Source: Candidatus Zhuqueibacterota bacterium
GTDB lineage: Bacteria > Zhuqueibacterota > Zhuqueibacteria > Residuimicrobiales > Krinioviventaceae
Assembly: GCA_034505495.1 (NCBI GenBank)
Contig: JAPDQV010000010.1
Location: forward strand, 33,108-97,107
DNA: 64,000 nt
Reading direction: 5' to 3'
The number at the start of each line of letters is the position of its first letter. Position 1 is the stretch's first letter. Position numbers and translations under genes: made by a program. Below the pieces are notes generated by a model that saw nothing but the letters and a program-made list of their open reading frames with translations, was not told the origin of the DNA and searched no databases. Positions 3,552 through 24,649 of this stretch are shown here, one piece after another.

Positions 3552-3818
3552 GCATCCTCTCATTGAATGAAGATCTTTTTACGGGTCTTCGGTCTCCAAA
3601 GTCATTTTGTAAATCTGCAGCGAACCGCCTGCCCCTATGCGCCTGCAGGAAGCGCTTTTATTAAATTCCTTTGTCCGATTGGGAATGCTCTCGACTTTAT
3701 GCGGCAGCAGCTTTCTATGCAGCATTGTCGCGCTCGGTGCGGAGTATTGCCGCCTCGCACCGACCGGCAACAGGCGGGTGGGCAATCCGCAGATCTCTCA
3801 TTACAGTACAATTGCCCG

Positions 3819-5819: not shown

Positions 5820-5960
5820 AGTCAGCCCTTTCCGCCACTTTGGCAACGGGTAAGTTACGAAAAAGATTTGCAGATTGCATCATTTGTTTTTTTTCATACA
5901 ATTTTGTTTATTGTTTATACCCACATCTCTCAGTCGAAAAATAACTTTGAGGAGCAAGAG

Positions 5961-7514: not shown

Positions 7515-7621
7515 CCTCGAGCCGCCCGCGACAAGCACTCTAACCCTGCTGTTCCCTAAGAGAGAAGCCCGGCGGGAAGGCGAGGACGTCTTGCCTCTTG
7601 TCCTTCCCGCCGATGATGTCA

Positions 7622-10162
7622 CTACCGTTGTACTAAATCTTGAAGTGCATGTGCCGCCAAAATGTAATGGGCGCAAATGTCAATGACGTACTCGTTCTCG
7701 CCCCACAGAAACGGCCAATCCTCTTTATTTTCTAAAAAATCAGGCTTTATAAGCAAAAGACCTGGCACAACGCCGCCGGCAATAAAAGTAAAATCAGCGC
7801 GATTGTTGCCGTAGGCAATCTTTTTCGAACGCACGCCGACGCCCGAAACAAACGAAATATTGGAGTAGGGATGACACCCGAAAATATAATCCATACCGCG
7901 GAACGCGTATTCGGCACCGATTATCTCCGGAAAAGCTTTGTGCAGGAGATAATTGGTCTCTACCCAGTCGATGATCGTTCCATTTCCGGCCCAACCGCCG
8001 GTCGTTATGGGAATGCCGAAGGGATTCTGCTTCAAGAGCTCATCATTATAGGCTTTGAATTTCTGCACAAAAGGCAGCAGTTTTTTCCGATATGCCTGAT
8101 CCCGATAAGGCAGAGCCGATACCGCGGTTTTGATGAGCCGAGTCGAGGACCGTTCGAGCTCGGACCATAGCAGCTTGTCAAACAGGTCGGCATAGGCTTG
8201 ATCTTTTGTCGAGATGTACAACTGCAGCGCCGCATTCAGTTCCGGAGCCCCCATGCCGAACGGACCGCCTCGCCGTCCCTCCTGAACGCGCCTCTGCTCT
8301 TCGGCAAAGGCTTTTTTCGCGGCAGTCAAGCACTCCTCGGCCAGCTCGTCAAGGTAGCTGCGCAAAGCGCGCGACGCGGCGGCCAGTGCGGCGATCGAGG
8401 CATAATTGTTCCACGGCAGATCGTTGGTGAAAACCCACCGGTCGTCCGGCGTGCCGCTTGTCAAGCCGTCTGATTGATAGGGCTTCAGTTTCGGATTAAA
8501 AGGCAGGTTGTCCGTAATGTTCGAGGCGTCTCCCAGGTGGTGGTATTGGTGTAAATTCGGCTCGATGATGCCGCTGATCGCCCGGCCGAAAGCGCGGTGC
8601 TGAGCAAGGATTGCCAGGATGCCCTGTTCAATTTGCTGCAAAATGTCCGGTTTACCGTCCGGGTGATGAATATCAACGAATCGTTGCGACTGATCCACCA
8701 GAGTTTCATCGCGCTGCGGTCGGAACCGTTCCCATGTGTTCACCAAGTTCATGACGGCGGCGCAGTGGGAACCGGTGCGAATATCGAAATCGCCGGCGTC
8801 GAACCATCCGCCGATGTTCAAGCCGGGCACGCGCTCGCCGGGCTGGTAACGCGTCTCGGTGCTCCCGCCCATGCGGTATCCGTCAAAGTGCTGATGATTG
8901 ATCGGCGCCTGCAGAGCGTCGTCCAGGTGAGCGGCACCATGCCAGACTCGATAGGCTTCGTTAACGAACATGTGATCCATCTGCACCGGAAACCAGACGT
9001 CCAGCGTCGGATGCCAAATCCCCTCAAAGACATGCGCGCCGATCAAAAAAGGTCCGCTTTGCTCGTCGCCATATTGAATGCGGTATATCCCTTCCTCCTG
9101 CAGCGATGAAAAGTCGAAGCGCAGATAATGATAGCGATAAAAATCGCCCCAATCCTGTGTTCTGCCGCGGTATTTTTCGACCCATTGACCGTTTGCCTCC
9201 AACTTGTGCACAACTGCTTGCTGCAGAGGAACGTCGTTTTTATCCAGCTCGATCACAGCCGTCTTGGGCTGAGTCGGGTGATAGCCGACCTGCGAATAGG
9301 CGATCATGGGTCGACGTTTCCAATTGGGGAGCGTGGTCGGCGTCAGTTGCCACTCGACCACCAGGCCGGTACGATCGGCCGGAAGAAGTGTGCGTACGAC
9401 ATACCAGCCGTTCTGCGCCACGCTGCGCCCGTCAAAAAGCTGCAGATCGCCGTCGAGAAGAGAGCGAATGGTGATGCAGCGTTCGGGATCTTCCGGCGCC
9501 AGAGTAAGCACTTTGCCCGTTGCAAACGGTTTGGGCTCCACATACTCGCCGCGGCCGCGATCGTCGAACGTCGAGTGGCCGGCGTATTGCCGAATCTGCG
9601 TCGACATCGGCTTGACTTCCATCGAATTGCAGGGATAGAGCGGGAAAATGCCTGTACGGTCGTCTATTCGATAGGTCTTTTCAAAATAAGCGGAAGGCAA
9701 AAATTCAAGGTTGAATCCGGTGCGTCCGTTCAGCTTTTCGGGCAAAGGCTGATCGAGATAGACGCGGAAAAAGGCGCTCCGGCCTTGAGCAAAAACCACC
9801 ACTCTGGAGGTAAAATCGAACTCGTCGTAGCGCAGCGTTATCTCGACGCTGTTTTCTTCGCGATTAACTTTTCGCTCTACGAGCCTGGGGATTTGATCCC
9901 ATTGTTCCGGCGTCGGTTTGAGCCTGACCGCTCCGCCGGTGGCCGTCCGCACCCCGTGATGGATAAGAATGATGCCGGAGGTCTTTTCGTCAAAGAACAT
10001 GCCGGTGTAGGCATTTTCGAACGCCAGCACATTAAAGCCCGGCATTTCAAAATATTCTTTGTCATTCAGCTTGAGAAAGCTCTCCTCAGCGGAGAACGCA
10101 TTCCCCAAAAATAAAACGGCAAAAAGCAAAAAGATCCGTTTGCAGAAGCGATGTTTCATCAT
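7622..10162 (-). CDS. Glycoside hydrolase family 9 endoglucanase with an N-terminal Ig-like (CelD_N) domain
   Basis: Signal peptide MMKHRFCKRIFLLFAVLFLGNAFSA. GH9 signature GGWFDAGDFD. ~845 aa. No obvious T9SS tail. Confidence 0.8.
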   Translation of the reverse strand: MMKHRFCKRIFLLFAVLFLGNAFSAEESFLKLNDKEYFEMPGFNVLAFENAYTGMFFDEKTSGIILIHHGVRTATGGAVRLKPTPEQWDQIPRLVERKVNREENSVEITLRYDEFDFTSRVVVFAQGRSAFFRVYLDQPLPEKLNGRTGFNLEFLPSAYFEKTYRIDDRTGIFPLYPCNSMEVKPMSTQIRQYAGHSTFDDRGRGEYVEPKPFATGKVLTLAPEDPERCITIRSLLDGDLQLFDGRSVAQNGWYVVRTLLPADRTGLVVEWQLTPTTLPNWKRRPMIAYSQVGYHPTQPKTAVIELDKNDVPLQQAVVHKLEANGQWVEKYRGRTQDWGDFYRYHYLRFDFSSLQEEGIYRIQYGDEQSGPFLIGAHVFEGIWHPTLDVWFPVQMDHMFVNEAYRVWHGAAHLDDALQAPINHQHFDGYRMGGSTETRYQPGERVPGLNIGGWFDAGDFDIRTGSHCAAVMNLVNTWERFRPQRDETLVDQSQRFVDIHHPDGKPDILQQIEQGILAILAQHRAFGRAISGIIEPNLHQYHHLGDASNITDNLPFNPKLKPYQSDGLTSGTPDDRWVFTNDLPWNNYASIAALAAASRALRSYLDELAEECLTAAKKAFAEEQRRVQEGRRGGPFGMGAPELNAALQLYISTKDQAYADLFDKLLWSELERSSTRLIKTAVSALPYRDQAYRKKLLPFVQKFKAYNDELLKQNPFGIPITTGGWAGNGTIIDWVETNYLLHKAFPEIIGAEYAFRGMDYIFGCHPYSNISFVSGVGVRSKKIAYGNNRADFTFIAGGVVPGLLLIKPDFLENKEDWPFLWGENEYVIDICAHYILAAHALQDLVQR

Positions 10163-10514
10163 GCATCCCTCAGTTTTTTGTTTTTCCACTTGGTATTCAG
10201 CTTTGTCAATCCATACCGTCGATCGACAAACAGCCCGGCAAAAGCCGTCGCATCATCCGGTCATTCAATAGTATCGCATCCTTTGCAAAGCATGCAGTAA
10301 GTGATTTTTGCTGCCCGGCTCGCAAGACGGAAGGGATTGTGATTTGACGAACGCTGGGTACCGGGTTGTTTTGACAAACGCAAAATGATGTTGAATGTTC
10401 TCTAATCCAAGGCAACGGAGAAACTGACGCCGCTCGGCCTCGGCAGGCCAAAGACCAACGCGCCGGCCCTCATCTGCAAAGGCTAAGGTTGAACATTGCA
10501 AAACAACGGCAGTT

Positions 10515-11042
10515 TTACGACCCATCAGTGATTCTTACTCTACCCGCCCCCATATAGCGTCGCCGGTAGTAAGAATCGCTCAGTTTGTTCAATGCGACCC
10601 CTTTTTGCCGACCGGCATCGATGAAATAACCCTTCTGCAGATAAAGCCCGACATGAGTAGGTCTCCCCTTTTCGCCGAAAAAGACAAGATCGCCGAACTG
10701 CAGCGCTCGGCTCGGTATCGGCAGGCAATAGGCGTACAGATCGACCACTGTCCGCGGCAGCGAAACGCCCAAGGCATTCCGATAGAGGGTCGAGACAAAT
10801 CCGGAACAATCCATACCCTCTTCCGTACTGCCGCCCCAACGGTAAGGCACTTGGTAATATCTTCGAATCTCCTGTTTGAGAAGCTCGACCTGCGGAGGTT
10901 GAAGAGGCGGGTATGACTGAATAATGGTTTCCTGTTGAGGAAGCGTGGAAGAGCAGGCACAAATCGCGTAGATCATCACAATTAAAAGGATGATCAGCAC
11001 CAGCTGAAGGTTACGCAATTGTTCCTTTCCCGGATTCTTCAT
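10515..11042 (-). CDS. NlpC/P60 (C40) family cell-wall peptidase, lipoprotein-like signal
   Basis: Catalytic Cys context RWGGSTEEGMDCSGFVSTLY plus downstream His (RPTHVGLYL), typical of NlpC/P60. Start placed at the ATG at 11040-11042 (MKNPGKEQLRNLQLVLIILLIVMIYAICACSS). Confidence 0.75.
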   Translation of the reverse strand: MKNPGKEQLRNLQLVLIILLIVMIYAICACSSTLPQQETIIQSYPPLQPPQVELLKQEIRRYYQVPYRWGGSTEEGMDCSGFVSTLYRNALGVSLPRTVVDLYAYCLPIPSRALQFGDLVFFGEKGRPTHVGLYLQKGYFIDAGRQKGVALNKLSDSYYRRRYMGAGRVRITDGS

Positions 11043-11160
11043 AATGTGGAGGGACGAACAAATCGACGTTTGCAAAGCCAACGGCTGATTTAATAGTGCG
11101 CCTTTCAAAGCCGCGGGAAAAATAAAAAGCCCTTGAACAAATAGGTTCAAGGGCTTGCTG

Positions 11161-11235
<75 letters not shown>

Positions 11236-11323
11236 TGTCATTATAATTTAATAAATATTTTTTTAAAGTCAAGTTTAATTTCCCGACACAAATGTATCTA
11301 AAGCGCTTAAAGCCTGTAGAGAA

Positions 11324-12094
11324 TCATCCGTAGCGTCCTTCGATGTATTCCGCTGTACGCGGGTCCTTGGGCGCAATGAACAGGTCGGTCGTAGCGCTGT
11401 GTTCGATGACCTCGCCCATCAGCATAAAAATACACTCTTCGCTGACGCGGCGCGCCTGCGCCATGTTGTGGGTCACGATAATAATGGTGTATTGACCTGC
11501 CAATTCGCGCATCAACTCTTCGATGTGCAGCGTCGCCTCTACGTCCAACGCCGAACAGGGCTCATCCATCAGAATGATCTGCGGTTTGAGCGGTAAAAGT
11601 CGGGCAATGCACAGCTTTTGTTGCTGCTCCAACAAAAGAGTCGTCGCTTTGACATTCAGCTTGTCCTTGAGATCTTTCCACAGCCCGACTGCCCGAAGGG
11701 ACTGCTCAACCGCTTCGTCCATTTGAGCCCGTGTTAAACTGCCGCGCGGCGTGTGGATGCGCAGCCCGAAAACTACATTCTCATACACGGAAATCGGCAG
11801 CGGGTTCGGCCGCTGAAAGACCATGCCGACCTGCTTGCGCAGCTCTTCCAGCGAAACGTTCGGATCGTAAATGTTGTTTCCCAGTATCTTGATCTCGCCG
11901 GTCGTGGTGACGTTGCCGTAACGTTCGTTGACGCGGTTGAGACAGCGCAAAAAGGTCGTCTTGCCGCAGCCCGACGGGCCGATAAGCGAAGTGATGATTC
12001 CCGCGCGAATGTTCAGGTTGACATTGATCAGCGCCTGGAAATCACCATACCAAAGGTTGAGGTCGCGTGTTGTGACGGCATAGGATTCCATCAA
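11324..12094 (-). CDS. pstB: Phosphate ABC transporter ATP-binding protein PstB (distal copy)
   Basis: Walker A GPSGCGKTT, ABC signature, and the PstB-typical N-terminus (LNLWYGDFQALINVNLNI). Confidence 0.9.
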   Translation of the reverse strand: MMESYAVTTRDLNLWYGDFQALINVNLNIRAGIITSLIGPSGCGKTTFLRCLNRVNERYGNVTTTGEIKILGNNIYDPNVSLEELRKQVGMVFQRPNPLPISVYENVVFGLRIHTPRGSLTRAQMDEAVEQSLRAVGLWKDLKDKLNVKATTLLLEQQQKLCIARLLPLKPQIILMDEPCSALDVEATLHIEELMRELAGQYTIIIVTHNMAQARRVSEECIFMLMGEVIEHSATTDLFIAPKDPRTAEYIEGRYG

Positions 12095-12855
12095 CCGAAT
12101 CTTCCGTTTACATAGTCATAGGTTTTCTGCGAGGCAGGATGATCGGAAAAGATCACGTCCGTAGCGTCGATTTCGACCAATTCGCCGTTAAAGAAAAACG
12201 CCGTGCGGTCTGCCAGGCGCCTCGCCTGCTGCACCAGGTTGGTGACCATGATGATCGTAATTTGTGAGCGCAGCTCTTTCAACGCATCCTCGATGCGCAT
12301 GGTTGTTACCGGGTCGATGGCGATCGAGAATTCATCGAGGCACAAGATTTCCGGATCGTGCGAAAGAGCGCGGGCGATGGTCAGCCTCTGCTGTTGTCCG
12401 CCGGAAAGTTTGGTGCCCAACGTGTGAAGCCGGTCTTTGACTTCATCCCACAAAGCCGCCTGTCTCAGGCAGCGCTCCACCCGTTCATCCAATTCGGCTT
12501 TGTCGGTAATGCCGGCCATGCGCGGCGCAAAGGCCACATTATCGTAAATCGACAGCGGCAGTCCCACCGGCAGCGGGGAAACAATGCCGATCTTGCGGCG
12601 CAGCTCGTAGACGTTTCGGATATCGTAAATATCCTCGCCGTTCATCCAAACGCTTCCCGAGACGCGGGCACTGGGAATGAACTCGATGGTCCGGTTGAGC
12701 ACCTTCAGAAACGTGGATTTACCGGATTGCGCCGGGCCGATGATTCCCAAGATTTCGTTCTCGTAAACATCGAACGAAATGCCCTTGAGGGCCTCGTGTG
12801 CGCCGTAACTGACCCGCAGGTTGCGGATCTGAATTTTTTCTTTTTTGTCTACCAT
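12091..12855 (-). CDS. pstB: Phosphate ABC transporter ATP-binding protein PstB (proximal copy)
   Basis: GPAQSGKST Walker A, LSGGQQQRLTIARAL signature; start at the ATG at 12853-12855 (MVDKKEKIQIRNLRVSYG). Overlaps the distal pstB by 4 nt. Confidence 0.85.
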   Translation of the reverse strand: MVDKKEKIQIRNLRVSYGAHEALKGISFDVYENEILGIIGPAQSGKSTFLKVLNRTIEFIPSARVSGSVWMNGEDIYDIRNVYELRRKIGIVSPLPVGLPLSIYDNVAFAPRMAGITDKAELDERVERCLRQAALWDEVKDRLHTLGTKLSGGQQQRLTIARALSHDPEILCLDEFSIAIDPVTTMRIEDALKELRSQITIIMVTNLVQQARRLADRTAFFFNGELVEIDATDVIFSDHPASQKTYDYVNGRFG

Positions 12856-13733
12856 TTTTTGCGCGACCGTAAGCGGATGCGAATGACAATCGACAGCGCA
12901 TTGACCAACAGCACGGTGCCCAAAAGCACGACAGCCGTGCCGTACGGAAGCGCCTCGGGAACATCGGGAACCTGCGTCGAGATCGTAAACAGATGCATGG
13001 AAAGAGCCATGCACTGATCGAGCAATCCGTAGGCAAAAATGTCGCCTTCACGGATGGCCTTGTAGAACACGGCACCGGTAAACATGATCGGCGCCGTTTC
13101 ACCGGCAGCGCGTGAGACCTGCAGAATAACGCCCGTCAGTATGCCGCTGATCGAATTGGGCAGCACGATGTGGCGAATGGTCTGCCATCGTGTTGCCCCG
13201 ACGTTCCAGCACGCTTCCCGAAAGGCCATGGGAACCGAGGCGAGCGCCTCTTTGGTGCCCGCAATGATCACCGGCAGGGTCATGATGGCGAGCGTCAGAG
13301 AGGCGGCCAAAATGGAACGCCCGATGCCTGCAGCCAGCACAAATGCGCCGAGGCCGAAAAGCGCATGCACAATACTGGGCACGCCGGCCAGATTGACCAC
13401 AGCCAGATTGATGATTCGCGTCAGCAAATTCTCCCGCGCGTATTCATTCAGATAGATGGCGGTCATGACGCCGATAGGAGTGGCGATCAGCAGCGAGATG
13501 ATGACCAAATAAAGCGTTCCCAGAAGCGCGGAAAAAATGCCTCCTTGGCGCATGCCGTGCGTGGGATTTTTGAGAATAAAATCGAGGGAGAGAATCGGCC
13601 ACGCTTTGACAAAGAGATAAACGATGATCAGGATCAACGGAATGATCATCAGCAGGCTCATTGCCAAAAAGATGCTCTTGGCAATTTTCTCACTCCGCGC
13701 GTTTTTCAGCGTCAGTTCGGTAGCGGTGAACAT
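12849..13733 (-). CDS. pstA: Phosphate ABC transporter permease PstA
   Basis: Six-TM permease with an EAA-like loop (AAGETAPIMFTG), immediately downstream of pstC. Confidence 0.9.
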   Translation of the reverse strand: MFTATELTLKNARSEKIAKSIFLAMSLLMIIPLILIIVYLFVKAWPILSLDFILKNPTHGMRQGGIFSALLGTLYLVIISLLIATPIGVMTAIYLNEYARENLLTRIINLAVVNLAGVPSIVHALFGLGAFVLAAGIGRSILAASLTLAIMTLPVIIAGTKEALASVPMAFREACWNVGATRWQTIRHIVLPNSISGILTGVILQVSRAAGETAPIMFTGAVFYKAIREGDIFAYGLLDQCMALSMHLFTISTQVPDVPEALPYGTAVVLLGTVLLVNALSIVIRIRLRSRKKW

Positions 13734-13741
13734 TCGTCATC

Positions 13742-14634
<893 letters not shown>

Positions 14635-14638
<4 letters not shown>

Positions 14639-15564
14639 TGTTGCTTCCCTCCCGCAACTTGAAGCTCCTCCTCAGGATGCACCGGTACATAGCCGGACAA
14701 CTTGACGATATGCTGTCCTTCCGGTGAAAGAATCCAATCGAGATATTTCCGGATGGTTTCATTGGGTTCGCCCAAGGTGTACATCAACAGCGGTCGAGCG
14801 ATCGGATATTTGCCGTTTTGCGTGTTTTCGATCGTCGGGGCATAAGCGGGTTCGCCCTTCTTTCTGCAAATGCGCAGCATCTTGACTCGATCGTTGGCGT
14901 ATCCCATGCCGCTGTAGCCGATCGCACTGGGCGTCCGGCTGACCAGTTCGACGACGTCCTTCGAACCGTGCATGTCGATCGTACCCAGACGCATGTCGCG
15001 CTTTTTGCCGATTACCGCCTCGCGAAAATAGTGATAGGTCCCCGAATTCGACTGCCGGCTGACGACCATTATCTCGTCGCGCGCACCCTTCGGCAAAGTC
15101 ACGCCCAACTGCGACCAACGGGTAATCTTGCCGTGCTCGCCATAGATCTCCGCCAGCTCTTCGATGCTCAGGCTGTCGATCGGATTGTCCCTGTGAACAT
15201 AGATCGCCAACGCGTCGTAACCGACAAGAAACTCGACCGGATCTTTGCCGGTGTGCTCCTTTGCCTTTTTGATCTCCATCGGTTCCATACGCCGGCTGCA
15301 GTTGGCAATATCGACGGTGTTTTCGATCAGCGCGGCAATACCGGTACCGGAGCCGCCGCCCGAGACTTCAATGGACACCTCATCGTTGACATGCGCATAG
15401 GCCTCGGCCCAAGCCTGAGCTAAATTGACCATCGTGTCGGAGCCTGTGTTTTGGATCGTCCGTTTGGCAACTCCGGCGGCCGATTGACTCGACCTTCCAT
15501 ACAGGCAGGAAACGAACAGGCTGCTGCTTACGGCAAGCAGAACTAGGCCGGCCGCCTTTAGCAT
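14635..15564 (-). CDS. pstS: Phosphate-binding periplasmic protein PstS
   Basis: SGSDTM...GGGSGTG phosphate-binding motifs; start at the ATG at 15562-15564 (MLKAAGLVLLAVSSSLFVSC, signal peptide). Confidence 0.9.
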
Positions 15565-15625
15565 CCTCCTGCACGGTTGCGCAGCCGCCGAACGACGTAA
15601 CAACGACGTAGTCAAAGAGTCGCGT

Positions 15626-16729
15626 TTACAGGTTTTCACCGGAAATTGCCTCGATTAGATCGCAAATGTTTGCCCGTAAACTGTCAAAAGCCTTCTCAAG
15701 GTGCGGGAAAAGCGCACCGGGATCATTCGGCTTCATTTTCGGCATTTTCATCGGCCATTCGATCACGATGGTGGTGAGCGGCAGACTGAGCTGTGAAGGC
15801 TTGATATGCGGTGAAAGCAGAATGACGCCGTGTATGGTTTCTTTGCCGGTGACTTCGGCGACGGATTTCGGTTTTTGTTCCGAAATGTTAATGCCCTTTT
15901 CGGCCATAAAGCCGACGATCATCGGATGTATCGGCTGGGGATTAATACCGGCGCTGAAAAAGCGGAACTTTGGTTTCTGCAGCGAGTTGGCAATGCCCTC
16001 GGCCATTTGGCTGATGATTGCGTTGTCATCATCGACAAAAAGAATGTTGTAGCCGCTCGCAGCCGAGTGTCGGACGTTCTCGCCGGTAACCACATAGTAG
16101 GTTTCCTGGCAAATGCTCTTGGCCTGATCGGCAACCCGCTCCAGTCGTCGGGCAATCGTCAGCAGGGGATTAATGGCTTCGTCGCCGAGCACGCCTTTGG
16201 CGCGCAGCTCAAAAATCTGCTGGTTGATCTTGAAACGAAGGTTATCGGCGACGTCCTCAATATCCATCAATTGGCGTGCTTTTTCGAGGTCGCGGTCTGC
16301 AAACGCCTGCACCGCATCGCGGAACATCTTGATCGAGGCATCGGCCAGCTCTTCGAACGGCAAACTTTCATAATCGGCGCCCAGATTCTGCAGCAATACG
16401 ATCTGGCGACACATGCTTTCGGCATAATCGCCGATGCGTTCCAGCCCGCTGACCATCTTGAGCACCGCATAGATGAAGCGCAAATGAATCCCGACCGGCT
16501 GCTGCCGCACGATGAATTGCAGACACAAGCGATCGATTTCATCCTCGAGGTCATCGATCAAATAGTCGCGCAGGATGACGACATAGGCTTTCTGTCGATT
16601 TTTTTCCAACAGAGCGGCCACGGCGCCGCGCAGGGCCGCTTCGTCCAATGCCGCCATGCGCATGAGCGTCTGGCGAATGGTCTGCAGATCGCGCTGCAGA
16701 GTGGCTTCATATCGAGGTTCACTTTGCAT
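15626..16729 (-). CDS. phoU: PhoU phosphate-signalling protein fused to a C-terminal catalytically inactive LMW-PTP/ArsC-like domain
   Basis: The N-terminal ~220 aa are two PhoU repeats (ExxxD patterns, LERIGDYAESM, LERVADQAKSI). The C-terminal ~140 aa align to low-molecular-weight phosphatase/ArsC (ILFVDDDNAIISQMAEG versus the canonical ILFVCTGNSCRSQMAEG; FFSAGINPQPIHPMIVGFMAEKGINISEQKPK), but the CX5R P-loop Cys and Arg are replaced by Asp and Ile. Confidence 0.8.
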   Translation of the reverse strand: MQSEPRYEATLQRDLQTIRQTLMRMAALDEAALRGAVAALLEKNRQKAYVVILRDYLIDDLEDEIDRLCLQFIVRQQPVGIHLRFIYAVLKMVSGLERIGDYAESMCRQIVLLQNLGADYESLPFEELADASIKMFRDAVQAFADRDLEKARQLMDIEDVADNLRFKINQQIFELRAKGVLGDEAINPLLTIARRLERVADQAKSICQETYYVVTGENVRHSAASGYNILFVDDDNAIISQMAEGIANSLQKPKFRFFSAGINPQPIHPMIVGFMAEKGINISEQKPKSVAEVTGKETIHGVILLSPHIKPSQLSLPLTTIVIEWPMKMPKMKPNDPGALFPHLEKAFDSLRANICDLIEAISGENL

Positions 16730-16812
16730 CTTTTGCCGCCTTTTTGAAGAATCGATTCATTTGTTTGATAAAATATGAAAGCTAAACTCAATTTGCAAGA
16801 TTAAGCCGCTTA

Positions 16813-16829
16813 TTAATAAACTCTTAATA
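16813..16829. promoter_or_regulatory. Candidate Pho box (direct repeats for an OmpR/PhoB-family regulator) upstream of phoU-pstSCAB
   Basis: TTAATA hexamers at 16813-16818 and 16824-16829, an 11-bp (one helical turn) spacing, ~85-100 bp upstream of the phoU start in an AT-rich intergenic region. Confidence 0.3.
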
Positions 16830-16855
16830 TTGCAATGACGATTATCCACACTATT

Positions 16856-18982
16856 TCAATGAAGCAAAAGCACACGGCGGACAAAGCGGCTATCGCCGCA
16901 CCGAATGCTGATGAGATACACGCCGCCTGCGTACACACTGCCGTCGAGAGCGAAGCGATGCTCCCCTTTTGCCAACCGGCCTTCAGCAACTAGAGCAATT
17001 CTTCTGCCGGTCAAATCAAAAAGCTCGATTCGGGTCGGCGCCGATTCCGGCAGATAAAGCTCCATGATAAAAGCGGAATTCGTCGGATTGGGATACAAGC
17101 GGCAGTCGAATTGGGCCTCGTCACGGGAGCGGATGCCGGTTGCGTCGGTCGGCAACTCGACGGCGACGTCGCTTTGCGGCTTTTCGAGTTCCGCAACAAC
17201 CTCCTTCACAACGCCCTCATATTCCGCCGCGATGCGGTAGCTGCCGAGAAAACCGCGAATTTCATAGACGCCTTCGGCATCCGTTGTGCCTTCGGTTCGT
17301 GTCCACCATCGATTCAACACCAAATCGACATAGGCGTGGTAGTTGGGCTTGTAACTCCAGTCTTTGCGGATCATGGCGCCCCGAGGCCGCCAGTGAATCG
17401 GCTCCCAAAATCCCCACATGACGAACTTGTTGACGCCGGGGTGACTGAAGATGAGCGTCAAAAAGTCGCGCGTATAATCCGCTTGAGCCTCTTCGTCGTC
17501 GATGTCGATGTCGAATTCGGTGATCTGAATCGGCAGGCCGTAAGCGGCAAACCGGTCGAGAATCTCCTTCAACCGGCGAGGCGTAGTCAGAACGGCGCCG
17601 AAATGCCCTTGAAATCCCAGGCCGTGCAGCGGCGCACCGCGAGAGAGAAGCAGCTCGACGATACGCGCCAGGTTGTCCTGTACCTTGATGTCGCCGCCCG
17701 AGATCAGCACTCCGGTTTCATTGAGGATCAGCCGCGTCTCGGGGTGCAGCTCATGAACTTTTTGGTACCATTCGACCAAAACCTCATCGCCGAGAAGGTC
17801 CATGACGTCGTGATTGGTATAAGGTTCGTTGACGACGTCCCATTCCTCGACGCCCGCTTCCCGTCCCACAGGCACCACGGTTTCCAAATGCTCCAGCAGG
17901 GCTTGGCGCAGGCCGGCCGGATTGTTCGCCAGGGAGCGAAAATAGGGCGTCATCCACGTCCAGCCCGGCCAAATCAGCACATGCCCTTTGGTGCGAAAAC
18001 CGTTATCAACCAGCCATTCCGCTCGGTGACGATAATCCTCCCGCACCTGCGCCGAAGAATACCATCCCCAACTGCCGTCTCCCATGTAAAAGGGCGTTGT
18101 AGCGGCGTTAAAGAGCTTAAAGATTTCTTCCCGATACCTTCGACCGTTCCGGCTGTCTTCGAACAGCGGACCATCCATAAAAGAACCGAACCGAAAAGCG
18201 TGACGCTGCATCTCGACCTTTACGCGCGCATTCTTGATCGGCAGATTGGCCTGGTTTTTGACTACGATCCGCAGATTACCCTTGCGCAGCTGCTCGATTC
18301 TTGCCTCCGCCTCAGCGCGCCAGGGAGCATTCGCCTCGCGACCGGCATAGGTGATTCGATTCTTCGGCAATTTTGCGGGATCGACATTGCGGCCCAAGTT
18401 AAGGGCAATGATGCCGCCGATTTCCAGCACCTGAGGGTAAAAGCCGAGATGAATGGTGAACTCCATCTTGCCGACTGGAAAATCCTGCGGCGCCTGGCCG
18501 TAAATGTAGATTTTATCCCATTCGCCGATCGGAGCCAGGTCGTGCGATGCAATTCCCGTCCAGGGTGATTCGGCAAGCTGAGCATAGAAAAATGCTTTTC
18601 CGGTCTCGTACTCGGGCGGCACCGATAGGCTGCGCACCCACAAAACCCAAAAGAGCATGTCGCCTTGATGCACGGCAATTGCATTTTTGGGTGAGACAAA
18701 CTGCGGCTCCCAGGAATTAGCGCCGACGCGTTTGACGTCGATTTGATACGCCTGGGTAAAAGGAAGATCTGCGGCGGCGGTAACACGCCTCAAAGCGGCC
18801 GTACCTCCGCCAAGCGAATAACCGGTCAACCTGCTGCAGTCATAGAGCAGTTCCCCGGCAACCGGCAGCTTGTCTCGTTCCGCCGCCAAATAGTCGGCAA
18901 ATTTCGGATCCGCTGACTGAGCAAACGTCAATCCGGTGAGACCCAGCAACAGGCAAAAGTATTTTGGTTTGAAGATTTTCAT
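16856..18982 (-). CDS. GH10 endo-1,4-beta-xylanase with N-terminal CBM-like region and T9SS C-terminal domain
   Basis: GH10 motifs WDVVNEP and ITEFDIDI. Signal peptide MKIFKPKYFCLLLGLTGLTFAQS (ATG at 18980-18982). Tail LYPNPTNSAFIMELYLPES...VYLISIRCGDSRFVRRVLLLH is Por_Secre_tail-like. Confidence 0.85.
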   Translation of the reverse strand: MKIFKPKYFCLLLGLTGLTFAQSADPKFADYLAAERDKLPVAGELLYDCSRLTGYSLGGGTAALRRVTAAADLPFTQAYQIDVKRVGANSWEPQFVSPKNAIAVHQGDMLFWVLWVRSLSVPPEYETGKAFFYAQLAESPWTGIASHDLAPIGEWDKIYIYGQAPQDFPVGKMEFTIHLGFYPQVLEIGGIIALNLGRNVDPAKLPKNRITYAGREANAPWRAEAEARIEQLRKGNLRIVVKNQANLPIKNARVKVEMQRHAFRFGSFMDGPLFEDSRNGRRYREEIFKLFNAATTPFYMGDGSWGWYSSAQVREDYRHRAEWLVDNGFRTKGHVLIWPGWTWMTPYFRSLANNPAGLRQALLEHLETVVPVGREAGVEEWDVVNEPYTNHDVMDLLGDEVLVEWYQKVHELHPETRLILNETGVLISGGDIKVQDNLARIVELLLSRGAPLHGLGFQGHFGAVLTTPRRLKEILDRFAAYGLPIQITEFDIDIDDEEAQADYTRDFLTLIFSHPGVNKFVMWGFWEPIHWRPRGAMIRKDWSYKPNYHAYVDLVLNRWWTRTEGTTDAEGVYEIRGFLGSYRIAAEYEGVVKEVVAELEKPQSDVAVELPTDATGIRSRDEAQFDCRLYPNPTNSAFIMELYLPESAPTRIELFDLTGRRIALVAEGRLAKGEHRFALDGSVYAGGVYLISIRCGDSRFVRRVLLLH

Positions 18983-19041
18983 TTGCTTTTTCCGCAATTG
19001 CTGATATTGTTCAAAATGTTGCCGACGACCGAAAGAAGTCT

Positions 19042-21111
19042 CTATCGTGCCGCAAGCAGCACAACCGAGCGCGGTGCGGCATCGTAATAGCTGTCGGCAA
19101 TGGCTTCCGCGAGATGCGGCGGTGAAAAATCCTTTGGATAAGCAAGCGAGGTGTCGATGACCCGCACCCACTCGCGGCCGCCCGGCAGCGCCGGAAGCTC
19201 GAAAACCAAGGGCTGCCAATACATGTTAAGAAGAACATGGAGGCGTTCATCGACTTTGGGATCATGCAGCGTAAAAGCCAGAGTATGCGAAGTCGGACTC
19301 CAATCGGGAGCCCCCAAATGCACACCATGCCAAATGATATGCAGGGCATCCTTTTGCTCTCCGACGGAGACCGGTTCTTCAGAGGTAAAACACCGGCTTT
19401 GCTGAACGAACTCGATCACGCCGCGGACGAACGCAAATAGGTCTTTGCGCCGCTTCAGATCGTCCCAATTGAACCAACTCTGTTCGTTGTCCTGGCAATA
19501 AGCGTTATTGTTGCCCAGTTGGGTGCGTCTGATTTCATCTCCCATCAAGAGCATCGGCGTGCCTTGCGAAATCAGCAAGATGGTGATGAAATTTTTGATC
19601 TGCCGCAGGCGCAGGGATTCGATATCCGGGTCGTCGGTCGGACCTTCAACGCCGCAGTTCCAGCTGAAATTTTCATCCAGCCCGTCGCGATTGTTCTCGA
19701 GGTTTGCCTCGTTGTGCTTTTGGTTATAAGAGACCAAATCGTTGACTGTAAAGCCGTCGTGGCAGGTGACAAAGTTGATGCTGCGGCGCGGTCCGCCTTC
19801 GCGGCCGTAGATGTCCGGACTGCCCAGGAGGCGGTCGGCGATCGACCGCGTCATGCCTTCATCACCGCGCACGAACCGCCGCACATCGTCGCGAAAGCGG
19901 CTGTTCCACTCGGCCCACCGTTCACCGACAAACGAACCGACTTGAAACAGGCCCGCGGCATCCCAAGCTTCGGCAATGATCTTGGCGTGCGCCGTCTCCG
20001 GCATGGTCTCGATCGACAACAGCGTCGGCGGATTGGATAACGCCCGACCTTGCTCGTCGCGACTAAGGACCGAAGCCAGATCAAAGCGAAAACCGTCTAC
20101 ATGCATTTCCATCGCCCAATATCGCAGGCAGTCCAGAATCATCCGCCTGACAACCGGATGGTTGGCATTGAGCGAGTTGCCGGTGCCGCTGTAATTGGCA
20201 TAGCGGGATTTATCTTCTTCGAGGATATAATAAATTTCATTGCCGAGCCCGCGGAACGAATAAGTCGGACCATCGGCGCCGCCTTCGGCTGTGTGATTGA
20301 ACACAACATCCAAAATGACCTCGATGCCTGCCAAATGCAGCGCTTTGACCATGTCGCGAAATTCGTCGAGAACGCCGATCGGGTCGCTCGTCGAGGCGTA
20401 CCAGGGATGCAGGGCAAAGAAAACGATGGGGTTGTAACCCCAATAATTGTGCAGCGGCGGCGGCGCATCGCCGTCGTCGAACAACTGCACCGGCATCAGC
20501 TCCACGGCCGTAATGCCGAGGCTTTTGAGATAGGGGATCTTTTCGATAACGCCCCGAAACGTGCCGCGCACCTTCGGGTCGAGCCCGGAACTGGGATGCC
20601 GCGTAAATCCCTTGACGTGCATCTCATAAATGACGCTTTCGGCATAGGGACGGCGCAAAGGATAGTCGTCTTCCCAATCATAGCGGGAGGGATCAACCAC
20701 CACGGACTTGATGGCCTGGGCGCAGTTGTCGCCGCCGATCCGCGCCGCCTCCCGATCGAATTTTTTGCCGATGGCGACGGCTTTGGCATAGGGGTCAACC
20801 AATACCTTGTGCCCGTTGAAACGCAGTCCCTTGGCGGGTTCAAACGGGCCGTAAGCGCGCCAGCCGTAAAGCTGCCCCTGGCCGATTCCCGGCACAAAAC
20901 AATGCCAATAGTAAGAGGTGCGGTTCATTTTCGGATCGAGCGTAATGACCCGTTCTGGCCGCGGCGCATCGACGTCGTCGAACAGCAGCAGTTCTACGGC
21001 ATAGGCATTTTTGGAATAAATACTAAAATTTACACCGTCGGCATAGACCGTCGCTCCCAAGGGAAAACTGCGGCCGTAAAGGCGGTGAGGATGAAGGTCG
21101 TGCAGGTCCAT
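19042..21111 (-). CDS. glgX: Glycogen debranching enzyme GlgX / isoamylase (GH13)
   Basis: N-terminal CBM48 region (PLGATVYADGVNFSIYSKNAYAVELLLFDD), GH13 catalytic blocks (DVVFNHTAEG, GFRFDLASVL, EAWD) and the usual ~690 aa length. Confidence 0.85.
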   Translation of the reverse strand: MDLHDLHPHRLYGRSFPLGATVYADGVNFSIYSKNAYAVELLLFDDVDAPRPERVITLDPKMNRTSYYWHCFVPGIGQGQLYGWRAYGPFEPAKGLRFNGHKVLVDPYAKAVAIGKKFDREAARIGGDNCAQAIKSVVVDPSRYDWEDDYPLRRPYAESVIYEMHVKGFTRHPSSGLDPKVRGTFRGVIEKIPYLKSLGITAVELMPVQLFDDGDAPPPLHNYWGYNPIVFFALHPWYASTSDPIGVLDEFRDMVKALHLAGIEVILDVVFNHTAEGGADGPTYSFRGLGNEIYYILEEDKSRYANYSGTGNSLNANHPVVRRMILDCLRYWAMEMHVDGFRFDLASVLSRDEQGRALSNPPTLLSIETMPETAHAKIIAEAWDAAGLFQVGSFVGERWAEWNSRFRDDVRRFVRGDEGMTRSIADRLLGSPDIYGREGGPRRSINFVTCHDGFTVNDLVSYNQKHNEANLENNRDGLDENFSWNCGVEGPTDDPDIESLRLRQIKNFITILLISQGTPMLLMGDEIRRTQLGNNNAYCQDNEQSWFNWDDLKRRKDLFAFVRGVIEFVQQSRCFTSEEPVSVGEQKDALHIIWHGVHLGAPDWSPTSHTLAFTLHDPKVDERLHVLLNMYWQPLVFELPALPGGREWVRVIDTSLAYPKDFSPPHLAEAIADSYYDAAPRSVVLLAAR

Positions 21112-21124
21112 CACTTACAAAGCG

Positions 21125-21866: not shown

Positions 21867-23444
21867 TTATTCACTGAATTCTTGTTTTCTTTTAGTTGCT
21901 TTTTTCAATGCCTCCATGCGCCCCATCGGCACGCGAATCGTGCCGTACCATTCCGGCGACGGAAGAATCGGCTTGACTTTAAAAGGAAGGTCCCGCCTCC
22001 TGCGGCCAAACAACAAATAACCAACGAAATGCAGTCCGGCAGCAAATGAGCGGCGGCCTTCGCGCGGCGATCGCACCGCCTGACGCAGTTTGTACCAAAG
22101 GTAACCGGGGCGAAAGTGGAAGCGGCGAAAGGCGCGCTCACAGAATCGTTCGATTTCTTCCGGCGGCAATCCCGGCAGATTGAGCACGCACCGATGGCCG
22201 CCTTCGGCCGTGAGCCATAGGTCAAAAGAATCGGTCGCCAGAAAGCCTTTTTCCTTGTAATAGGCATAAGCGCCGGTTCCGGGATAAGGCATTACCGGAT
22301 AAAACTGCGCGCTGTCCGGTTTTATCTTTATCGCCAGCTGCAGCGTTTTTTTCATCGTCTCACGGGTTTCTCCCGGAAACCCGACCATGAAGCAGCCGTG
22401 CACCAAAATTCCCAGTTTATGGGCGTTTTCGACGAACCGCTGCTGAATCGCGGTATTCTGTCCCTTGCGCATGTTGCGCAGAATCCGGTCATCGCCGGAT
22501 TCGAACCCTACCGCCGTGCTGTGCAGGCCCGCCTCTTTGAGCAGCCGCAGCGTCTCGAAATCGACGGTGGTGCGCAGATTGGCAAAAAAAGGCAGCCGAA
22601 CGCCTTTTTCCTTGACCAGCTGCGCAAAGCGTCGGGCAAACGGCGGATCTGCGGCAAAATTATCATCCTCGAAGGTGATCTCGCGAATTTCCGGCATGTT
22701 CTCCTGCACCCACAGCATTTCGCCGACGATGTTTTCCGGACTGCGGTGTCGATAACGATGACCGTGCATCACTTGGGGATAGACGCAATAGAAACACATG
22801 GCGGTGCAGCCGCGGCCTCCGATCAGCATCACCATAGGGTGATGGCTGAGATTGAAATAATAGTCATTAGGATTAAGAAAGCGTTTGTAGATCGGCGCGA
22901 TCCAAGGGAGATCGTCGAGATTTTCGATCAGCGGGCGCTCCGCATTTTTGCAGATTTCGCCGTTACGACGATAGGCGAGGCCCAAAACTCGGCTCGGCGA
23001 ACCGCCCTGCTCCAACAGTTGCGCCAGCTCCGCCACCGTAAGGTCGTACTCGCCGATGCAGACGTAATCGACGGCCGGGTGACGCTCCAGCGTCTCACGC
23101 CAGAGCGCCGTGACGTGGGTGCCGACCATGGCGACGGCCGATTCGGGAAGTATCGCCTTGAGCTCACCCGCGACGGCACAATCACTGTACCAACTGGCGG
23201 TTACGGACTCGAGGACAATCAAATCCGGTGCAAAGTCCAGCAGGCGACTGCGGATGTCGGCGAGAGTGCGGCGGCTTGCGGGACAGTCGATCAAATCGAT
23301 TTCATGGCCTCGCGATTCGGCAACCGCCGCGGCGGAAGCAAGCCAATAAGGGTAATACATAGTGCCGGACTTGATTACTCCCGGACTCCGCTGCGAACGG
23401 CTGAAACGCTCGAAATAAGGCGGATTAAGGAAGAGAATGCGCAT
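21867..23444 (-). CDS. Cobalamin (B12)-binding radical SAM enzyme (class B)
   Basis: N-terminal B12-binding Rossmann-like region (MRILFLNPPY...IDLIDC), radical SAM CxxxCxxC (GCTAMCFYCVYP), ~525 aa. Confidence 0.85.
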   Translation of the reverse strand: MRILFLNPPYFERFSRSQRSPGVIKSGTMYYPYWLASAAAVAESRGHEIDLIDCPASRRTLADIRSRLLDFAPDLIVLESVTASWYSDCAVAGELKAILPESAVAMVGTHVTALWRETLERHPAVDYVCIGEYDLTVAELAQLLEQGGSPSRVLGLAYRRNGEICKNAERPLIENLDDLPWIAPIYKRFLNPNDYYFNLSHHPMVMLIGGRGCTAMCFYCVYPQVMHGHRYRHRSPENIVGEMLWVQENMPEIREITFEDDNFAADPPFARRFAQLVKEKGVRLPFFANLRTTVDFETLRLLKEAGLHSTAVGFESGDDRILRNMRKGQNTAIQQRFVENAHKLGILVHGCFMVGFPGETRETMKKTLQLAIKIKPDSAQFYPVMPYPGTGAYAYYKEKGFLATDSFDLWLTAEGGHRCVLNLPGLPPEEIERFCERAFRRFHFRPGYLWYKLRQAVRSPREGRRSFAAGLHFVGYLLFGRRRRDLPFKVKPILPSPEWYGTIRVPMGRMEALKKATKRKQEFSE

Positions 23445-23449
23445 AATCT

Positions 23450-24649
23450 CTATAGAAATTTAACATCGGACAAAAACAAATCGCAGCAGCGGTAACAAAC
23501 GGGAAACAGGCCTCGGTGCTTTATCTCCTGCCGCCAACGACGGTATTTTTCGCCGTTCCAAATGTCCAAAAAGGACTGCTCGTGAATGTTGCCGCAAATA
23601 TAATCGGGAAAATCCGGACAAGGCGTCACGTCGCCGTTCGGCAGGATGTACGACTTGACATAGATCGACAGGCAGGTACGGTGACCAAAGGTTTCGTGTA
23701 TGTTCTCATAATAGGTCTCCACCTGATCCGTCTCGAGCGCCGGAGACAGCGAGACCGGCAAAGGCAGATCGGAGCTGTAAAGCTTTTCGAGCTCCTGACG
23801 AATCCCCTCGTACTTGCCGCGGCGCTCGGGATCGAAAATGACGCCGCTTTCGAAGGGCTGCCAGGACACTGCTTTGATGCCGAACAGCTGATGCATCAGG
23901 CGCTGATGCGCCGTGCCGGTCTCTTTGGTGGTAAACCAAGTCCAGTTAAAGTTGAGACTGTCGGCGCCAAGCTCGGCGGCGATTGCGGGCAGGAGCGATA
24001 CCGTTGCAAAGCTCTCGGGACTGATGGTGCCGCGAATCCGTATCAGCGGCTTGGACGCGTTCCGCGCTTTCTTTTCGGCAATGACAGCCGCCAATCCGGC
24101 CTTCACTTCAGCAAAGACGCCCTGTCTGCCGCGCACTCGATCGTGGATTTCTTCCGGTCCGTCAATCGAAACGATGAGATCGTCCAGACCGCTTTCCACG
24201 ATTTCTTTAGCGTGACGGCGCAGCAGCAGGCCGTTGGTGTTGATCTGCACCGTAAACCGGCGCGATTTTGCCGTCCGAACCAGGTCGAACAGCTGCGGAT
24301 ACAGGAACGGCTCGCCGCCCCAGAGATAGAGGTTGGGACGCGCCGGCGCCAGCTCGTCGAGGAGCCGTTCATAAACTTCAAGAGAGGTTCGCTGACGGAA
24401 AAACTCGGGCGGCGCATATTTGGGGTCGCCGGGAGCATGACCTTCGCGCGGCTGTCCGCACATGCGGCAGCGCAAATTGCAGGCATTGCTCAATCTAATG
24501 CAGACGGCATTGGGCGGCGCCGCGCTGCCGTTGCGGAAGTGATAATCCCATAATGCCCGCAGCCGAGTGCTCCAAGTCGTGCGCATCTTGTTGCGCGCCA
24601 ACTCGGGATTCTTGAGAGCCAGCCGTGCGAGCTTTACAATGGTGCGCAT
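23450..24649 (-). CDS. Radical SAM enzyme with a C-terminal SPASM/twitch Cys-rich domain
   Basis: CNLRCRMC radical SAM cluster motif; C-terminal CPDFPDYICGN...CYRCCD auxiliary-cluster cysteines. Only 5 nt downstream of the B12-rSAM gene start, so the two are co-transcribed. Confidence 0.8.
   Translation of the reverse strand: MRTIVKLARLALKNPELARNKMRTTWSTRLRALWDYHFRNGSAAPPNAVCIRLSNACNLRCRMCGQPREGHAPGDPKYAPPEFFRQRTSLEVYERLLDELAPARPNLYLWGGEPFLYPQLFDLVRTAKSRRFTVQINTNGLLLRRHAKEIVESGLDDLIVSIDGPEEIHDRVRGRQGVFAEVKAGLAAVIAEKKARNASKPLIRIRGTISPESFATVSLLPAIAAELGADSLNFNWTWFTTKETGTAHQRLMHQLFGIKAVSWQPFESGVIFDPERRGKYEGIRQELEKLYSSDLPLPVSLSPALETDQVETYYENIHETFGHRTCLSIYVKSYILPNGDVTPCPDFPDYICGNIHEQSFLDIWNGEKYRRWRQEIKHRGLFPVCYRCCDLFLSDVKFL

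Follow-up and report, generated by a model that had tools for sequence, protein, structure and literature searches.

What does a phosphate-signaling protein do with an appended arsenate reductase-like domain whose active site is gone, and can that domain still recognize phosphate? The question is raised by the first gene of a pst operon in a Candidatus Zhuqueibacterota bacterium (GenBank assembly GCA_034505495.1, contig JAPDQV010000010.1), which lies in a stretch of 64,000 nucleotides that we analyzed as a whole and call the window. The original prediction, made from the letters of the window, described this gene as a fusion of PhoU to a catalytically dead domain related to low-molecular-weight protein-tyrosine phosphatases (LMW-PTPs) and the arsenate reductase ArsC. 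It proposed that the dead domain kept a phosphate- or arsenate-binding loop and served as a sensing adaptor. The fusion gene and its two domains are as follows.

15626..16729, minus strand: phoU-(ArsC-like) fusion gene, the operon's first gene, with an ATG start and 367 amino acids (aa) plus a stop codon
16073..16699, minus strand: PhoU domain, residues 11-219, with two PF01895 repeats in a six-helix bundle
15638..16051, minus strand: predicted pseudoenzyme domain of the ArsC/LMW-PTP fold, residues 227-364, recognized by PF01451, TIGR02691, PDB matches to ArsC, AlphaFold2 (AF2) and Foldseek

The fusion was confirmed by Pfam, NCBIfam, PDB sequence matches and Foldseek. More than 190 distinct homologs of ∼366 aa come from independent assemblies, and since all of these share the two-domain length, an artefact of assembly, frameshifting or gene calling was ruled out. 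Searches with PF01895 and PF01451 both matched, and the domain bounds were placed at residues 11 to 219 (by TIGR02135) and 227 to 364, with a linker of ∼6 residues in between. Across the aligned family members, PF01895 was found in 119 of 119 and PF01451 in 117 of 119 (best PF01451 E = 1.5e-14). The AF2 model of the fusion, built on this 119-sequence family alignment, had a mean predicted local distance difference test score (pLDDT) of 91.8. Databases tag both Pfam domains yet name these proteins just "PhoU," which hides the extra domain.

Residues 11 to 219 are a complete conventional PhoU on every testable feature. They scored 146 bits with TIGR02135 phoU_full, above the equivalog cutoff of 130.25, and matched PF01895 PhoU in two stretches (E = 2e-35). 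The closest solved relatives by PDB sequence search were the PhoU proteins 1t72, 1xwm, and 4q25, and Foldseek matched this half to 4q25_A (template modeling score [TM] normalized as TMt, 0.95; root mean square deviation, 1.4) and to 1t72 (TMt, 0.94). The AF2 helices span residues 4-42, 45-76, 80-116, 123-145, 157-177, and 183-215. Both metal-binding E/DxxxD motifs are intact (ERIGDYAE at 97-104 and ERVADQAK at 197-204), and residues E97, R98, G100, D101, E197, and D201 show no variation across the 119 aligned sequences. No other PhoU was found within the 64-kb window; the open reading frame (ORF) after pstB2, considered as a second PhoU of the operon, encodes an NlpC/P60 protein.

The C-terminal half is homologous to the arsenate-reductase branch of the LMW-PTP superfamily, as had been claimed for the last ∼140 aa. 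PF01451 LMWPc matched residues 229 to 294 with 25.4 bits, above its gathering score of 23.2 (E = 1.8e-5), and TIGR02691 arsC_pI258_fam matched residues 230 to 349 over model positions 2 to 120 of 129 (E = 6e-10). The concern that this region might miss the LMW-PTP/ArsC profiles was therefore answered by two matches. The TIGR02691 score of 39.5 bits is far under the equivalog cutoff of 174.3, which leaves the domain outside that equivalog family. Searched against the sequences in the PDB, the C-terminal 145 aa matched Synechocystis ArsC (2myu, E = 1.3e-6) and Bacillus subtilis ArsC (1jl3, E = 2.7e-4), and Foldseek matched this half to ArsC and LMW-PTPs at probability 1.00, with TM of 0.77 to 0.87 for ArsC structures (0.87 for 1jf8) and E = 1.6e-6 for 8p5n. 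In the AF2 model, the secondary structure comprises β1 (227-233), α1 (239-249), β2 (255-261), β3 (301-304), β4 (321-324), and a C-terminal helix (337-363), in keeping with the superfamily's sheet of four parallel strands, in which the P-loop lies between β1 and α1. The domain is still under constraint: its mean pairwise identity is 50%, versus 61% for the PhoU half, and reaches 50 to 66% within the query's subclade, and Asn236, Ser240, Gln241, Glu244, the SAG motif (259-261), Trp325, and Pro330 each reach 90% conservation or more in the family alignment.

The two loops that would form the active site were located by alignment.

16010..16033, minus strand: degenerate P-loop D233-D-D-N-A-I-I-S240, equivalent to C10-T-G-N-S-C-R-S17 of ArsC in an ungapped HMMER alignment to 1jl3 and 2l17
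15737..15757, minus strand: remnant of the DP (general-acid) loop, W325-P-M-K-M-P-K331, in which Met329 is the equivalent of Asp105 and the Pro is retained (HWGFDDPA in ArsC, W..v.DPs in the family)

HMMER paired ILFVDDDNAIISQMAEG of the query with IYFLCTGNSCRSQMAEG of B. subtilis ArsC with zero gaps, which places Asp233 at Cys10, Ile at Cys15, and Ile239 at Arg16. The replacement of Cys by Asp and of Arg by Ile (DDDNAIIS versus CTGNSCRS) was thus exact as predicted, and D233 to D235 are encoded by GAT GAT GAC at 16025-16033. A misread or displaced nucleophile was ruled out, as the alignment is ungapped and the sole Cys of the domain is C354 in the last helix rather than elsewhere in the loop. 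The query loop carries a formal charge of −3 from its three consecutive Asp residues, versus +1 for CTGNSCRS, and it retains Asn236 and Ser240 without the Arg. Close to the DP-loop remnant lies D333-P334, which is not conserved in the query's clade. The redox relay cysteines (Cys82 and Cys89 equivalents) are also lost, TLCGDAADKCP being paired with ILLSPHIKPSQLS in the query and with aLa.ea...fP in the family consensus. The ArsC and LMW-PTP reference sequences in the domain alignment were partly checked against the PDB-search alignments. Lacking the Cys and Arg of the CX5R motif, the DP-loop Asp, the redox cysteines, and an equivalog score, the C-terminal half is predicted to be a pseudoenzyme domain and not an arsenate reductase or a phosphatase. 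The earlier view that it is not an enzyme would hold even more strongly than first stated, given that the whole family lacks the redox cysteines and that the query has lost its DP-loop Asp as well.

The family is old and widespread. A search of 5.8 billion proteins gave 2370 matches, the best 120 of which were all ∼366 aa long and nearly all contained both Pfam domains. Two relatives, P0001 and L001, are 100% and 97% identical to the query. In GTDB, with one genome per species, 486 species encode a relative. They belong to at least 5 phyla, mainly Verrucomicrobiota but also KSB1, Myxococcota (Polyangiales), Acidobacteriota, and Chloroflexota. When the C-terminal domain was searched against 1.8 billion cluster representatives, the Asp variant occurred almost only in ∼365-aa fusions or obvious fragments, and a standalone Asp-variant LMWPc family was rejected, since standalone ∼140-aa proteins carry CxxNxxRS.

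We then asked which active-site residues persist in 198 distinct sequences of the family. The nucleophile position (Cys10 equivalent) is Asp in 191, Gly in 5, Glu in 1, Ser in 1, and never Cys. The Arg16 equivalent is Arg in 115 (58%), and the Cys15 equivalent is Cys in 160. In the DP loop, Asp is found in 165 and is M, L, V, or F in the query's clade, and Pro is found in 186. Two-by-two counts of Arg and DP-loop Asp were 110, 55, 28, and 5, with both residues kept in 110 of the 198. Deeper in the family, ∼28 true fusions taken as representatives at 50% identity have Asp (19), Ser (5), Gly (3), or Cys (1) at the nucleophile site. The sole fusion-family member observed with a nucleophile Cys is the 359-aa protein P0195 (CEDNACIS; DP loop ENPS), which may represent an ancestral-like intermediate or may have regained its Cys.

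On a neighbor-joining tree built without the motif columns, the Arg state switches at least 18 times, versus ∼63 times for shuffled tips, whereas the Asp at the nucleophile site is replaced in 7 scattered tips only. The presence of Arg in just 58% of sequences, together with these repeated changes of state, argues that Arg-mediated anion binding cannot be the conserved function of the family. The query falls in a 12-member clade that is uniformly without Arg and without the DP-loop Asp. For the query protein, the claim that a phosphate- or arsenate-binding loop is still present therefore did not hold up, in view of the lost Arg, the charge of the DDD loop, and these clade-wide losses. With the Arg, the DP-loop Asp, and the redox cysteines all missing from the query's clade, an intact anion cradle appears unlikely in this protein, and phosphate binding through the ArsC-like domain was probably lost in its lineage.

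The genetic setting of the fusion gene is a pst operon, which it heads as had been predicted, lying directly upstream of pstS-pstC-pstA-pstB1-pstB2.

16730..16855, minus strand: AT-rich intergenic region preceding the fusion gene, a presumed promoter/regulatory region of the operon
14635..15639, minus strand: pstS, periplasmic phosphate-binding protein (PF12849 PBP_like_2, E = 7e-42)
13742..14638, minus strand: pstC, permease (PF00528, E = 3e-21), position conserved in 80 loci
12849..13733, minus strand: pstA, permease (PF00528, E = 8e-16), position conserved
12091..12855, minus strand: pstB1, ATPase paralog with degenerate catalytic motifs (PF00005), likely start MVDKKEK
11324..12094, minus strand: pstB2, ATPase paralog with a degenerate signature (PF00005)

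These six minus-strand genes are tightly packed, and none of the 80 related loci, which come from at least 5 phyla, departs from their order as far as its contig extends. Looser neighbors in the 80 loci are all phosphate related, namely, an OmpR-type regulator (18 loci), DUF47 plus a PiT transporter (10 to 13 loci), and a plain PhoU (5 loci). The true start of pstS is probably the Met at ∼15564, which would yield a lipoprotein-type signal peptide, MLKAAGLVLLAVSSSLFVSC. A scan of 16730..16855 for the sigma-70 consensus found no site, and that consensus may not be the one used in this phylum. Two loci, one from Ca. Zhuqueibacter pondensis and the other from an unclassified metagenome-assembled genome (MAG), have ∼2.3 kb inserted between pstB1 and pstB2 (12934-15207 in L048 and 12780-15252 in L056), and the insert in L056 includes a DUF47/PhoU_div-like ORF at 12935-13615.

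At the other end of the operon, a terminator-like hairpin on the minus strand at 11127-11156 (a 12-bp stem with 6 G-C pairs, followed by a T-run) is the region's only strong one. It lies ∼170 nucleotides downstream of the pstB2 stop at 11324 and just inside the 5′ end of the listed NlpC/P60 ORF (10515-11150). A good sigma-70-like site, TTTAAA-16-TATAAT, is found at 11267-11240, between pstB2 and this ORF. Given the positions of the hairpin and of the sigma-70-like site, the pst operon may stop short of the NlpC/P60 gene, and the true start of that gene may be further downstream.

The two ATPase paralogs of the operon are not equivalent. Their motifs were read by alignment to Escherichia coli PstB across loci (72 PstB1 and 65 PstB2 sequences).

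Q-loop Gln: Pro in 69 of 72 PstB1; intact in 65 of 65 PstB2
H-loop His: Asn in 69 of 72 PstB1; intact in 64 of 65 PstB2
LSGGQ signature: intact in 70 of 72 PstB1; degenerate in 64 of 65 PstB2 (LQLEQ in 56, LLLEQ in 3, including the window)
Walker B Asp-Glu: intact in PstB1 and PstB2

In the window, PstB1 has Walker A GPAQSGKST, Q-loop IVSPLP, an intact LSGGQ, and H-loop VTNLV, and PstB2 has intact Walker A, Q-loop, Walker B, and H-loop motifs with the signature LLLEQ. This complementary degeneracy is conserved in ∼65 operons from at least 5 phyla. In an ATP-binding cassette (ABC) protein, one subunit supplies an ATP site with Walker A, Walker B, Q-loop, and H-loop, and the signature comes from the other subunit. 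From the complementary motif losses, PstB1 and PstB2 are therefore predicted to form a heterodimeric ATPase with one consensus site, made of the PstB2 catalytic motifs and the PstB1 signature, and one degenerate site. Full-text searches turned up no account of an asymmetric PstB pair linked to the fusion; the one study returned concerns the tandem PstB1/PstB2 of Enterococcus faecalis, whose motifs are identical and intact (PMC12096839). As here, this Firmicutes tandem has two adjacent pstB genes in one pst locus, but the fusion-linked pair is complementarily degenerate and tied to the PhoU fusion.

A Myxococcales MAG (L025) carries a second, divergently oriented pstS-pstC-pstA-pstB cluster (1885-5423, minus strand) beside its fusion operon (8001-13462). 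The single PstB of this second cluster is fully canonical (GPSGCGKST, MVFQRS, LSGGQ, MDEP, and VTHNM), showing that canonical and asymmetric Pst systems coexist in one genome. Since the E. faecalis pair is intact and the second PstB of L025 is canonical, complementary degeneracy is not the general look of tandem pstB genes. The PstB asymmetry may matter more than the original finding.

The distances between operons link the fusion to one of the two paralogs. A mirror-tree analysis of pairwise distances in 63 operons (the window plus L002 to L079), with Mantel tests, separated two blocks, one with PstS, PstC, PstA, and PstB1 (r = 0.65 to 0.91) and the other with the PhoU domain, the C-terminal domain, and PstB2 (r = 0.48 to 0.69). 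The PhoU domain correlated with PstB2 (r = 0.64, Mantel P = 0.001; partial r = 0.43 when controlling for the C-terminal domain), versus r = 0.01 to 0.15 with PstS, PstC, and PstA. In the operon, the fusion gene comes first and pstB2 last. These correlations lend weak support to a functional link between PhoU and PstB2. No association was found between the Arg state and the PstB2 signature variant. A Verrucomicrobiota subgroup (L018, L036, L070, L039, L033, L029, L073, and L021) has markedly divergent PstS, PstC, PstA, and PstB1.

How, then, might the fusion work? PhoU links PstSCAB to PhoR and represses the Pho response. The reading that we favor, tentatively and with a little less than even confidence, is that the fusion serves as the PhoU brake on a Pst importer of a distinct, asymmetric kind and carries a noncatalytic, ligand-independent accessory pseudoenzyme domain. 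The PhoU half would act as it does elsewhere, binding a PstB ATPase, most likely the catalytically competent PstB2, and restraining transport and Pho signaling under phosphate sufficiency. In the ArsC-like half, Asp233 would fill the backbone-amide anion hole of its own P-loop. A P-loop capped in this way would give a stable fold that is redox insensitive and ligand independent, and the domain would be an accessory module rigidly joined to PhoU via the ∼6-residue linker rather than a phosphate or arsenate receptor. This proposal is the most economical because the Arg, the DP-loop Asp, and all active-site cysteines are lost and the loop has three consecutive Asp residues. An extra sensor domain may not be required for phosphate sensing, as the purified plain PhoU1 of Mycobacterium smegmatis shifted the kinase toward phosphatase activity when inorganic phosphate (Pi) was present (PMC12301784); the PhoU fold may thus respond to Pi on its own.

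Several observations weigh against this proposal. The high conservation of Asp at the nucleophile site (96% in close relatives) could reflect a chemical rather than a structural role, and the retained P-loop backbone, Asn236, and Ser240 make weak binding of an anion or of a metal-phosphate complex possible. The predicted TM (pTM) of the AF2 model was 0.64, so the relative arrangement of the two domains is uncertain. The mirror tree gave no sign that the C-terminal domain has a PstB partner of its own, its partial r being 0.12 to 0.16 with every Pst protein once the PhoU domain was controlled for. Finally, the mirror-tree blocks could stem from exchange of a pstSCAB1 cassette and not from physical coadaptation.

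The rival that survives best, which we nevertheless consider somewhat unlikely, places function at the level of the family: the domain would be a sensor, or a very slow Asp-dependent hydrolase, in the majority that keeps both Arg and the DP-loop Asp (D-x-x-N-S-C-R-S plus W..DP), and the query's KSB1 clade would hold a relic kept only for PhoU folding or assembly. Beyond the 110 of 198 sequences that retain both residues, the DP-loop Asp is found in 96% of Arg-containing sequences versus 66% of those without Arg, Cys15 and Arg co-occur, and the query's clade lost Arg, Cys15, and the DP-loop Asp together. The engineered C215D form of PTP1B (Romsicki 2003) reportedly retained its fold and residual activity, and this also counts in favor. 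However, the association of Arg with the DP-loop Asp ignores phylogeny, Arg was lost many times independently where the domain stays well conserved, and Ser or Gly occupies the nucleophile site in deeper fusions. A bolder version, unlikely in our estimation, would make the fusion and the asymmetric PstB pair a distinct, self-contained importer class, in which the P-loop of sequences with Arg and the DP-loop Asp (D-x5-R plus DP loop) is a cytoplasmic receptor for Pi or arsenate that lets PhoU gate the transporter directly, and the KSB1 clade would represent a "sensor-off" variant found in nature. Such a receptor, if it exists, would give bacteria an intracellular Pi-sensor domain with a function comparable to that of the eukaryotic SPX domains.

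It is distinctly unlikely that the dead P-loop of the query itself still binds cytoplasmic phosphate or arsenate noncovalently and relays its occupancy to PhoU, which would then gate Pst or signal. The loop length, Asn236, Ser240, and the N terminus of helix 1 (SQMAEG) are preserved, the pLDDT of the loop is ∼94, the domain descends from an oxyanion-binding enzyme, and it is fused to a phosphate-signaling protein in a pst operon. Yet the oxyanion-clamping Arg is Ile, the loop opens with Asp-Asp-Asp, and the DP-loop Asp is Met; these losses are common to the whole 12-member clade, the Arg is dispensable in the family at large (absent in 42%, with the repeated changes of state described above), and plain PhoU already responds to Pi.

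We rate as very improbable a divalent-cation or metal-phosphate site formed by the acidic loop (DDD; D-[ED]-[HD] in many members) in cooperation with the E/DxxxD motifs of PhoU. Acidic residues do cluster at the end of β1 next to a PhoU half with intact metal motifs, and Asn236, Glu244, and Ser259, which we take to be the counterparts of the cation-site residues of pI258 ArsC, are each at least 90% conserved. The loop offers no conserved ligand triad, though, with E, D, K, Q, A, S, G, or I at position 234 and H, D, N, G, T, or R at position 235, and the P-loop amides point inward and favor anions over cations. We give hardly any credence to Asp233 as a phospho-acceptor or nucleophile (acyl-phosphate), with the domain as a receiver or Asp-phosphatase in a PhoR/PhoB phosphorelay: FVDDD at the end of β1 superficially resembles a receiver acidic pocket, the LMW-PTP fold would be topologically near the flavodoxin-like fold, and the Asp is highly conserved in close relatives, but ILFVDDD gave no PF00072 Response_reg match at E ≤ 1, the best fold matches are all ArsC or LMW-PTPs, the receiver β3 Asp, β4 Thr, and β5 Lys have no equivalents, Ser or Gly replaces the Asp in deeper members, and the query lacks the Arg and the general acid for P-loop chemistry.

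In the window, polysaccharide-degradation genes surround the pst operon (1722-10189 and 16856-21114).

1722-3563: BipA/TypA
3819-5846: glycoside hydrolase family 5 (GH5) cellulase with CBM6/CBM35
7622-10189: GH9 enzyme with a CelD_N domain
16856-19219: GH10 xylanase with a type IX secretion system (T9SS) Por_Secre_tail

By the look of its sequence, a 690-aa ORF at 19042-21114 resembles a GH13 debranching enzyme. Two adjacent ORFs on the minus strand, 21867-23444 and 23450-24649, have radical-SAM-like CxxxCxxC motifs read by eye (GCTAMCFYCVYP and SNACNLRCRMCGQ). A 719-aa ORF on the plus strand (5355-7514) had no Pfam match at E ≤ 0.001, and its 5′ end overlaps the opposite-strand GH5 gene; the ORF might encode a new protein, or it might be a spurious reading frame of GC-rich DNA.

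Full-text searches found no literature describing the PhoU-LMWPc architecture; an Accumulibacter preprint considered as a prior description concerns Pit-associated PhoU homologs and not the fusion. How PhoU and Pst perceive phosphate status is still debated, and the family provides a natural handle on this problem, with domain variants that have or lack the Arg. The PstB asymmetry should ease the trapping and orienting of PhoU-PstB complexes for structural work and hints at a single nucleotide site as the place where PhoU acts. Members of the family are frequent among Verrucomicrobiota, Myxococcota, Acidobacteriota, KSB1, and Chloroflexota, phyla that abound in soils and fresh waters and for which phosphate scavenging is ecologically relevant.

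Compared with canonical PhoU (E. coli; Pseudomonas aeruginosa 4Q25; Aquifex aeolicus 1T72), the fusion shares the two repeats, the E/DxxxD motifs, the six-helix fold, and the linkage to pst, but it adds a 140-aa C-terminal domain, its gene is first rather than last in the operon, and it is paired with two nonequivalent PstB paralogs instead of a PstB homodimer. With the thioredoxin-type ArsC proteins (Staphylococcus aureus pI258 1JF8/1LJL; B. subtilis 1JL3; Synechocystis 2L17), the C-terminal domain shares the fold, the length and register of the P-loop, the N-x-x-x-S-Q-M-A-E-G signature, the SAG motif after β2, and two residues of the W..DP loop (Trp and Pro). It departs from them in having Asp, Ile, Ile, and Met in place of Cys10, Cys15, Arg16, and Asp105 and no counterpart of Cys82 or Cys89.

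The known heterodimeric ABC ATPases that pair a consensus site with a degenerate one, such as TM287/288, CFTR, and TAP1/2, are mostly exporters. They follow the same pattern as PstB1/PstB2, one nucleotide-binding domain being without H- or Q-loop residues and its partner without the signature that completes that site. In contrast, the PstB pair would belong to a type I phosphate importer and keeps the Walker B Asp-Glu in both subunits, its asymmetry being a prediction from sequence.

STYX-type proteins are pseudophosphatases, with a phosphatase fold and a mutated CX5R motif. An LMWPc-fold assembly factor of the trypanosome mitoribosome, mt-SAF26 (6SGA chain FW), was among the sequence and fold matches of our searches, and LMW-PTP pseudophosphatases are known in Drosophila (PMC7772506). 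In all of these, as here, purifying selection has maintained the fold in a noncatalytic role once the Cys was lost. The fusion domain differs from them in being bacterial and of the ArsC branch, in having Asp as the preferred replacement, and in being permanently fused to a regulator of phosphate homeostasis.

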